This document shows, one piece after another, positions 8,441 to 10,435 of a stretch of 64,000 bases of DNA. Every line of letters starts with the position of its first letter. Position 1 is the first letter of the stretch. Source of the stretch: an uncultured Candidatus Actinomarinales bacterium (GTDB lineage Bacteria > Actinomycetota > Acidimicrobiia > Actinomarinales > Actinomarinaceae); the NCBI GenBank assembly GCA_943789065.1, contig CALSSQ010000001.1, positions 188,619-252,618 of the forward strand. The letters run 5' to 3'. The notes beneath the pieces are model-generated. The model saw only the letters and a program-made list of their open reading frames with translations, searched no databases and was not told where the DNA came from. The position numbers were made by a program, and so were the translations under genes.

Positions 8441-10435
8441 TTGTGGGTAACTTCAGATACTGATATTCCAGGAATTGACCCGACACTTACTTACACAGCA
8501 AGTTGTATTGTACCTACAACTACAACTACAACTACAACTTCAACTACAACTATACCTACAATTTCAAACGTACAAATTGCGACAACTACTACAACTACTA
8601 CAACTACAACAACTACACTGCCTCCAACAACGACTACTACTTTGAAACAGGAGATATTTAAACCATCTCTATTCGTTAACAGATCTTGTTCAGACGGTGG
8701 TGGAGCATCATTTGGAATTACAGCCCTAAATACAAATTCAACAGTGGGTGCTGATATTAGAGTAAAAGTCTGGATAGATAAAAAAAGAGTATTTTTTAAT
8801 ACCTATAAAGTAGGTGCAAATAATAATATTTTTATCACCTCTATAGGCGGTGTTCCAGAAGATTCATATTTTAAAATAAAAATTGTTTTTAGAGATGAAT
8901 TAGGAGCCCACAAAACAGTTGGTCGATTTAGTAAAATAACTAATTGTGATAATGAAATAGTTTCTACAAGAACATCAACGATTCCGGTAATGACAACAAC
9001 AACACTAGCACCACTTTTACCCACAGATCCAAGCATTGAGTCAGGAGTTACCACAACAACGCTACCTCTATTTGATCCTCCAGTTGTAGAGGTCATAGAT
9101 GAAGAATTACTAGAGTTTGAAGATCCACTTACGGGCGAAGAAGGAAATGATTTCTTCGTTTGGGATGATTTTAATGAGGACCTTTATTTTACAGATGGAA
9201 ATTATCAAATTCAGTACTTCTACGAAGAAGACAGCCTCAAGTTAGCAGCAACAGGGATAGATTTAGATTATATCCTTTTAGGCAGTTCTTTACTTCTTTT
9301 CGTAGGTTTGGCTTTATTTGTTTCATCAAGAAAAAAAAGTTTAATGTCGCAACCAGGAAATGTATCAATAGAAAATATTTATAAAAATTCATTTAAGTTA
9401 AAAACAAAACTTGAAAAAATTCTTAAAGAGAAAGTACTTATTAAGATACCCCTTAATGAAATGAATCCATACGGTATTGGCGTGGGAAGATATAACGAAA
9501 AAGTAACATCTCTAAATGCTGAATTGGAATACACACTTGTTGCGATTAGAAATTTAGAGAGAAAATACATAGAACTAGATGAGGATATAACTAAGGAAAA
9601 ATTTGAAGAGGTTTTTTCATTAATATCTAACAACTTTGAAATTGAGTTCACTGGCTCTGAACCCACTAAAGAGAGTTTCTCATCTGAAGGTGAAGTAGCT
9701 AAAAAAAGTTTTTTGAATATAAGAAAAAAACAGGTACAAAAAAAACAAACTAATAGAAATAGTGGGCTAGCTTTTGCGTCACTCTTAATTTTGGGTGGAT
9801 TGGGATTAGGCCTGTATGCTTCCCAGCAAATGTATTTAACTAATTTTCAACAACAAAATGCACAAGAATATTTAGCAACAATTTACTCTGATGATGTTGA
9901 TGGTAATGCTGATATAGATCAGGTATTCGTTCAGAAAAATAATCCGCTTCAAAGTGATATACCTGTATTCGAAAATCTTAGAGACATTCCAGGACTTACT
10001 CGAAATAATGAAGTTAAGAAATATGTACCTGATGTTTTTGGTTATCTTGAAATACCTACAATAAATCTCAAACAGTATGTAGTCTCTGGGACTGATGAGA
10101 TGAGTTTACAGTATGGTCCAGGACACTATATGCAAACAAATCTACCTGGTTCAGGAGGAAATGTTGGTATCGCAGGGCATAGAACAACTTATGGGGCACC
10201 ATTTACTAGATTAGATTTATTAGAAGTTGGAGATACTATCTTTTTAAATTTTGGTGGTAATAAATATCATTATGAAATTGATGAAAAGCTTATTGTTGAT
10301 GCAAATGAAGGTGAGTATGTTCTCTACGATAGAGGCGATGACCGTATTACTCTTACAACCTGTCATCCAAAATATTCTGCACGTCAGAGATTAGTTATTT
10401 CTGGAAAACTTTTTAAAATCGAGAGTGCTAACTAG
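8441..10435 (+). CDS. Fusion ORF: C-terminus of the cassette 2 surface protein (Thr linker, basal domain, LAATG, TM), cytoplasmic domain, TM, class E-like sortase
   Basis: LAATG at 9242-9256 plus hydrophobic helix and RKK, with no stop after it. The frame continues to GNVGIAGHRTTYGAPF (His 10178-10180) and ITLTTCHPKYSARQRLV (Cys 10361-10363). Confidence 0.88.
   Translation: MWVTSDTDIPGIDPTLTYTASCIVPTTTTTTTTSTTTIPTISNVQIATTTTTTTTTTTTLPPTTTTTLKQEIFKPSLFVNRSCSDGGGASFGITALNTNSTVGADIRVKVWIDKKRVFFNTYKVGANNNIFITSIGGVPEDSYFKIKIVFRDELGAHKTVGRFSKITNCDNEIVSTRTSTIPVMTTTTLAPLLPTDPSIESGVTTTTLPLFDPPVVEVIDEELLEFEDPLTGEEGNDFFVWDDFNEDLYFTDGNYQIQYFYEEDSLKLAATGIDLDYILLGSSLLLFVGLALFVSSRKKSLMSQPGNVSIENIYKNSFKLKTKLEKILKEKVLIKIPLNEMNPYGIGVGRYNEKVTSLNAELEYTLVAIRNLERKYIELDEDITKEKFEEVFSLISNNFEIEFTGSEPTKESFSSEGEVAKKSFLNIRKKQVQKKQTNRNSGLAFASLLILGGLGLGLYASQQMYLTNFQQQNAQEYLATIYSDDVDGNADIDQVFVQKNNPLQSDIPVFENLRDIPGLTRNNEVKKYVPDVFGYLEIPTINLKQYVVSGTDEMSLQYGPGHYMQTNLPGSGGNVGIAGHRTTYGAPFTRLDLLEVGDTIFLNFGGNKYHYEIDEKLIVDANEGEYVLYDRGDDRITLTTCHPKYSARQRLVISGKLFKIESAN

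Follow-up and report, generated by a model that had tools for sequence, protein, structure and literature searches.

A conserved open reading frame in Candidatus Actinomarina that joins an internal LAxTG sorting signal to a class-E-like sortase

Sortases are textbook enzymes, and they serve as drug targets and as protein-engineering tools. To our knowledge, they have always been described with substrates that are encoded separately. Self-cleaving fusions of the form SrtA-LPXTG-target were reportedly engineered for protein purification (Mao, 2004); these place enzyme and motif on one chain, as does the gene described below, and the fused sortase cuts that chain, as is inferred here, but they are man-made and soluble, run in the order enzyme, motif, cargo, and release their product rather than anchor it to a wall. 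Dedicated pairs of one sortase and a single target, such as those of class GN (TIGR03784), also tie one enzyme genetically to one substrate, although the two are separate, adjacent genes. By analogy only, the type V autotransporters of diderms combine a passenger with its placing machinery in one polypeptide at a 1:1 ratio; no homology is involved, and their translocator is an outer-membrane beta-barrel without a transpeptidase.

The closest natural relatives are the class E sortases, which include SrtE1 and SrtE2 of Streptomyces coelicolor with their chaplin substrates (PDB 5CUW, PMC5148588) and SrtF of Corynebacterium diphtheriae (PDB 5UUS). Enzymes of this class use LAxTG, with Ala at P3, for wall anchoring, and in SrtE1 a conserved Tyr of the beta3/beta4 loop (Tyr229) reads the P3 Ala (PMC5148588). 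A cytoplasmic N-terminal extension of SrtE1 is functionally needed (PMC5148588). The sortase considered here resembles this class in its fold, its His-Cys-Arg residues and the Ala at P3 of its motif, and like SrtE1 it carries a long cytoplasmic segment ahead of the membrane helix that leads into the catalytic domain. In contrast, this segment forms a folded domain of its own, and no similarity between it and the SrtE1 extension is detectable. A further difference concerns gene layout: class E enzymes and substrates are separate proteins, and the cell wall sorting signal (CWSS) lies at the C-terminus of the substrate, whereas here both reside in one polypeptide and the signal is internal.

Candidatus Actinomarina is a tiny, abundant marine bacterium. 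Literature searches returned no paper that treats both Actinomarina and sortase, and the Actinomarinales genome paper (PMC7771536) does not mention sortases. The remark in the first-pass annotation that it knew of no described natural substrate-sortase fusion was borne out in the literature searched, one review included, where only engineered fusions were found.

The locus lies in a 64-kb stretch of DNA, referred to as the window, which was analyzed as a whole. A 664-aa open reading frame (ORF) at 8441-10435 on the plus strand remains open under table 11 and consists of the parts listed below. The region at 4573-8436 is listed with it for reasons given further on.

4573..8436, plus strand: in natural populations, the first 1287 codons of this gene, with signal peptide, head domain and ~100-aa Cys-bounded repeats
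8441..9241, plus strand: Thr-rich linkers, Cys-bounded basal domain and acidic-aromatic segment (ORF translation)
9242..9256, plus strand: LAATG sorting motif (coordinates checked)
9257..9328, plus strand: 24-residue hydrophobic helix of the sorting signal, IDLDYILLGSSLLLFVGLALFVSS (hydropathy; a helix in the AF2 model)
9329..9337, plus strand: positively charged tail RKK, with codons on the A8 run at 9331-9338
9338..9763, plus strand: polar cytoplasmic domain of 142 residues (~140)
9764..9820, plus strand: second transmembrane helix, GLAFASLLILGGLGLGLYA, running from inside to outside (hydropathy, AF2 model)
9821..10045, plus strand: extracellular linker of ~75 residues, poorly conserved (alignment, AF2 model)
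10046..10435, plus strand: sortase catalytic domain and stop codon (Pfam Sortase PF04203 at 10046-10411)
10439..13433, plus strand: downstream genes for a TetR-like regulator, a 478-aa polytopic membrane protein and a Thr-stalked HExxH protein

All three elements of a CWSS are present, namely the pentapeptide LAATG, 24 hydrophobic-rich residues and the RKK tail. The motif occurs once in the 64-kb window against 0.02 occurrences expected by chance, and it is directly preceded by the acidic-aromatic segment (GNDFFVWDDF...YFTDGNY), which is kept in orthologues. The position of the signal is atypical: 365 residues follow the RKK tail, so it does not lie at the extreme C-terminus, and this internal placement is what makes the case unusual. 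Translation of the ORF, the Pfam match and the checked coordinates all agree with the initial claim that LAATG, helix and RKK run without a stop into a cytoplasmic domain, a second transmembrane helix and a sortase domain with an intact His-Cys-Arg set. The catalytic codons are at 10178-10180 (His), 10361-10363 (Cys) and 10388-10390 (Arg), within the motifs GIAGHR, TLTTCHP and SARQR.

Assignment to the sortase family is secure with respect to two models. PF04203 matches 10046-10411 with an E-value of 1.1e-29 and 103.2 bits (cut-off 26.6), and TIGR01076 scores 88.9 bits against a cut-off of 39.35. Class membership is less clear-cut. The best NCBIfam model is that of class E (NF033747), which scores 119.6 bits and remains under its cut-off of 160; the enzyme is hence best labeled class-E-like and not counted as certified class E. 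Class C follows at 99.9 bits, and the class GN "marine sortase" model (TIGR03784) reaches only 57 bits against a cut-off of 158. Both sequence and fold scores against class C and class D sortases are nearly as good as those against class E. The Tyr of a GPGHY motif (Y310, alignment A3) is invariant in 32 orthologues and aligns with the GPGHY of 5UUS.

An AF2 model of the region from motif to sortase covers window positions 9200-10432. In it, the catalytic domain has block-mean pLDDT values of about 63-90 and meets the criterion of the eight-stranded beta-barrel sortase fold, and Foldseek matches this domain to sortases at E-values of about 1e-11 to 1e-12 with target-normalised TM-scores of 0.6-0.8. 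The ~75-residue linker is predicted to be mostly disordered, with pLDDT < 50 over most of its length. The cytoplasmic domain is modeled at pLDDT 79 as helix-strand-helix-helix-strand; a PDB search with this fold produced no match (best E-value 3.2), and Pfam returned only noise. The model gave no sign of LAATG docking in the active site, and with a motif pLDDT of ~30 it is uninformative on this point.

The junction between substrate and enzyme falls on the A8 run at 9331-9338. With one A fewer, the sequence would read RKKV-TAA, and this stop would share bases with an ATG at 9344, giving TAATG. Because TAATG is typical of gene junctions and A8 is a homopolymer, an indel error was treated as the leading rival at first. 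Logan contigs from four metagenomes of four studies match 8541-10500 without gaps and retain A8, and three further DNA runs likewise cross the junction gap-free, including one small run (depth 473) that probably derives from a single cell. The DNA contigs that cross the junction represent metagenomes of five studies and the probable single-cell run. Metatranscriptome contigs from four runs of two studies span 9009-10600, again gap-free and with A8; since these RNA contigs cross the junction, the fused frame is transcribed in the sea. Altogether, the junction is identical in 11 DNA and RNA contig runs from at least seven studies, and two additional runs inspected as raw Illumina reads list no indel there, at a depth of only about 4-8x. 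A stop or indel between 9256 and 9400, which the first-pass annotation had named as the observation that would overturn the fusion, is therefore absent from contigs and raw reads alike. Population SNPs in the ORF number 15, of which 11 are synonymous and four conservative in the fused frame, with synonymous changes both before (9301) and after (9349) the A8 run.

A second irregularity lies upstream. The window has one extra base at 8431/8432 that is absent from all eight public runs covering the site. Its removal joins 4573-8436 and 8441-10435 into a single 1953-aa ORF with a signal peptide; the TTG start at 8441 in the ORF as written is a product of the extra base, and that ORF has no signal peptide. 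The hydropathy profile of the 1953-aa form contains exactly three hydrophobic segments, which correspond to the signal peptide (residues 28-46, followed by AYA|SS), the sorting-signal helix (1567-1585) and the second helix (1731-1749). This profile accords with the proposal that substrate motif and catalytic domain both face outside. The corrected frame also enlarges the substrate. An N-terminal passenger had been foreseen as the anchored part and is retained, but it is not limited to the ~270 residues encoded from 8441; since the correction joins the frames, it comprises the whole ~1500-residue repeat protein that begins at 4573. A comparable extra base at 1606 splits the adhesin of the first cassette, and three runs are without it. 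Neither 1606 nor 8432 sits on a homopolymer, and the two extra bases are either assembly errors or strain-specific knockouts. If real in the strain of the window, the base at 8432 would detach the passenger from its anchor and sortase.

Scanning a single genome for each prokaryotic species yielded 80 loci, and the suggested search for LPxTG or LAxTG and a transmembrane helix upstream of a sortase domain recovered the same fusion in at least 32 species genomes (loci L001-L032), all of them assigned to Candidatus Actinomarina or Actinomarinales. In these loci, the sortase frame is open upstream through [L/M]AxTG, a 24-residue helix and an R/K tail, while sortase identity across the 32 species is 38-78%. 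The junction is visible in 31 of the 32 (L015 is cut by a contig end), and in 29 of these the charged tail follows the motif at a spacing of 24 aa. The 31 motifs are LAATG, LAETG, LADTG, LANTG and MADTG; in the 32-sequence alignment, Ala, Thr and Gly of the motif are invariant, position 1 is L or M, and position 3 varies between A, E, D and N. The catalytic residues H327, C388 and R397 are invariant in the same alignment. Stop-to-stop frames extend up to 3011 aa, and the 13 complete ORFs measure 1752-3003 aa, each with a conserved signal peptide at its start. Junction nucleotides differ between species, with A-runs of three to eight bases.

The fusion appears to be confined to this group within the material searched. 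None was detected in 40 outgroup loci, mostly of Acidimicrobiales. A library of 1.84 billion proteins contains a complete 1471-aa fused protein; among its 150 best-scoring sortase representatives, only the few closest are fused, and the remaining ~140 are free sortases in which no fusion was found. Two candidates (P0050 and P0071) were rejected, as they have only the sortase's own N-terminal helix following a chance LAGTG or IAATG. No database names were recorded for the fused proteins. The reality and conservation of the fusion as such are close to certain.

Fused and split versions adjoin in this genome, which makes the window especially useful. Of its three paralogous cassettes, two are split:

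Cassette 1: substrate with IAATG...PRRRRG-stop, ending at 2590; free sortase at 2597-3811
Cassette 3: substrate at 16716-27968 with LPVTG...RKAYRF-stop; free sortase at 27968-29629

The only sorting signals in the 64-kb window are three in number, one per cassette. The split cassettes resemble the fused gene in their passenger repeats, basal domain, cytoplasmic domain, second helix and catalytic domain, and cassette 3 is followed by the same downstream genes. They differ in that a stop codon parts substrate from enzyme and each product has a helix of its own, that of the free sortase being N-terminal. Cassette 3 further departs from the fusion in its LPVTG motif and a RecA C-terminal-like insert in the cytoplasmic loop; the cytoplasmic domain itself is common to the fused and both free sortases. 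A membrane-protein gene is possibly split at 30606-30666, where read coverage at 97% likeness is zero.

The two ORFs of cassette 1 are in the same frame with one TAA and two codons between them. In an alignment, the first transmembrane helix (TM1) of the cassette 1 sortase coincides with the sorting-signal helix, and the KKK of this sortase with RKK; the first-pass annotation had anticipated as much in proposing that the sorting-signal helix stands in for TM1 in free sortases. A tree of catalytic domains unites the Actinomarinales sortases in one clade. Within it, the type bearing RecA_C branches as sister to all others, and the cassette 1 type falls inside the fused clade at a node that is an unresolved polytomy. 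The further suggestion that the fusion explains why the free paralogues have two transmembrane helices agrees with alignment and tree, but the polytomy leaves it unsettled; fission of a fused ancestor as the source of the free sortases would, on the same footing, fit the tree without being proven by it. As for the fusion, it probably arose when an LAxTG substrate gene lost the stop codon that had separated it from a class-E-type sortase downstream, one with an N-terminal extension in the cytoplasm. The two ends to be joined, C-terminal in the substrate and N-terminal in the sortase, are both cytoplasmic, from which it is inferred that they could be fused without a change in topology.

The order of the parts, their conservation and their transcription are observed directly, and processing is inferred. 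The preferred interpretation, to which a probability of roughly 0.6 is attached, is that a sortase substrate and its sortase form one precursor that is cleaved by itself or by a neighbor, with the passenger passed to the wall. In such a scheme, the precursor would be exported by Sec until the sorting-signal helix halts transfer and leaves RKK inside. The second helix would then return the catalytic domain to the outside, near LAATG, on its flexible linker of ~75 residues. The Cys could attack the T-G bond of its own chain or that of a neighboring precursor, hold the passenger as a thioester and give it to the amine of a peptidoglycan precursor. What is left over would consist of G, helix, cytoplasmic domain, helix and sortase, a two-helix build like that of the free paralogues at 2597-3811 and 27968-29629, and this remainder could later act in trans. 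Self-cleavage in either mode is inferred from the kept motif and catalytic triad, with no biochemical or proteomic evidence of cleavage, and processing in cis cannot be distinguished from processing in trans by sequence. The peptidoglycan acceptor must remain unspecified because cell wall chemistry is not known for Actinomarinales (PMC7771536). A bolder version, possible but doubtful, would have an obligate cis self-anchoring module as the monoderm counterpart of autotransporters, with the free two-helix sortases as fission products whose TM1 is a fossil sorting-signal helix. If true, anchoring in cis would mean that a rare enzyme no longer has to encounter a rare substrate, in a cell that is among the smallest free-living ones known.

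Other explanations bear either on the fate of the precursor or on the integrity of the frame. Cleavage at LAxTG could be followed by shedding of the passenger through hydrolysis, or by its attachment to another protein in the manner of pili. Such an outcome is left room by the uncharacterized cell wall of Actinomarinales (PMC7771536), by domain scores against classes C and D that come close to class E, and by the conserved HExxH stalk and polytopic membrane proteins encoded downstream, which could indicate further processing. It is nonetheless judged unlikely, given that LAxTG is the wall-anchoring motif of class E (PMC5148588), that class E is the best family model, and that neither a pilin motif nor a gene for a second subunit is seen in the cassette. 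Alternatively, the fusion may be genuine and never cut, with the helices holding a giant protein in the membrane and the sortase serving other substrates or persisting as a structural remnant. Although direct evidence of cleavage is lacking and AF2 does not dock the motif, this possibility sits poorly with the retention of the motif's Ala, Thr and Gly, the 24-residue spacing and the triad in 32 species at 38-78% identity while x and the flanks vary, a pattern expected of a recognition site in use and an active enzyme. In the 64-kb window, the only two other sorting signals each have a sortase of their own. An uncut precursor is regarded as distinctly improbable.

Two further alternatives would do away with the single polypeptide. 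One has the ORF yield two proteins, either by slippage on A8 (RKKV-stop with restart at ATG 9344) or by an internal start at that ATG. It draws on the A8 run itself, on the GTT TAA of the +1 frame with its TAATG, and on a Met after the tail that is found in the window and about a third of the orthologues. However, the A-run is only three to six bases long in 24 of 31 orthologue junctions and the frame is open in all 31; where the Met is missing, Leu or Ile codons stand in its place, and these are not consistent starts; and the RNA contigs have A8, though minor variants would be hidden in contigs. Homopolymer error or slippage at A8 was accordingly ruled out by the presence of A8 in DNA and RNA runs of several studies and by the short, in-frame runs of the orthologues, as was a conserved internal start for the sortase part by the lack of conservation of the Met, and the production of two proteins retains only a slight chance. 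The other alternative, an artefact of sequencing or assembly or else a pseudogene specific to this strain, gains some color from the single inserted bases at 1606 and 8432, which are missing from public runs, and from a junction that rests on a homopolymer, but it has next to no credibility in light of an identical junction across the contig and raw-read runs and the persistence of the fusion in 32 species despite differing junction nucleotides.

A natural fusion of substrate and enzyme, conserved and expressed in a marine lineage of global abundance, would represent a new mode of building the cell surface. It would provide a ready-made system for comparing sortase catalysis in cis and in trans, show how a streamlined cell obtains 1:1 stoichiometry, and account for the odd two-helix sortases of Actinomarinales. 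The window itself contributes the side-by-side cassettes, the read-level test of A8, the in situ transcripts and the correction at 8432. Beyond the fused gene, the same downstream gene order is found in the Actinomarina loci, with the TetR gene missing in six of them (L027-L032).

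A polytopic membrane protein of 478 aa (11081–12517) is encoded 3′ of the sortase in those Actinomarina loci (L001–L040) that are long enough to show the region. In most of these loci, the protein is more conserved than the sortase itself, with identities of 54–87% behind fused genes, in which substrate and sortase form a single chain, versus 38–41% behind free sortases of the RecA_C type. No family in Pfam or NCBIfam was found for it, and a role as a so far unrecognised partner in the Actinomarina surface-protein system is likely.

In sortase 3, the free enzyme of cassette 3, the cytoplasmic loop (28205–28375) matches the RecA C-terminal domain (PF21096, E = 2.7e-16; TIGR02012, E = 1.5e-9), and this domain is also present in the sortase 3 orthologues of L034–L040. 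The cytoplasmic domain common to the fused and free sortases (9338–9763 in the fused gene) is predicted with confidence (pLDDT 79); searches of the PDB and Pfam returned no fold match and no family, respectively. In cassette 1, the free sortase ORF is in frame with the substrate ORF and is separated from it only by TAA and two codons (2560–2640). Its start nearly coincides with the predicted start of the product that processing of the fusion, itself inferred, would leave. This arrangement resembles the outcome of a fission in which the fused form was split and its helix duplicated.

Within the fused gene of cassette 2, the adhesin passenger is far less conserved than the anchor-sortase part. 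The threonine linker and the end of the passenger repeats (8417–8640) differ among strains, an additional ACA (Thr) codon being present at 8605 in public run X40, and several runs with good coverage of the anchor and the sortase have zero depth over 8417–8490. Just 5′ of the anchor region, the giant adhesin ORF is broken by one additional base at 8431–8432 relative to eight public runs, and the giant adhesin ORF of cassette 1 is likewise broken just 5′ of its own anchor region by one additional base at 1606 relative to three runs. Neither site lies in a homopolymer. The extra bases reflect either errors of assembly or knockouts of both adhesins that are specific to this strain. A third frameshift of this assembly possibly occurs behind sortase 3, where the match to the 478-aa membrane protein, which in cassette 2 is a single chain, is spread over two overlapping ORFs of 345 and 215 aa (29629–31253). 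In L039, the homologue is one continuous ORF. In the window, 30396–30715 is without read coverage at 97% likeness.

Two free class-E-like sortases from elsewhere in the protein library, P0050 and P0071, have LAGTG or IAATG immediately before their own N-terminal membrane helix. These occurrences are probably due to chance, since a cytoplasmic location is expected for that position.
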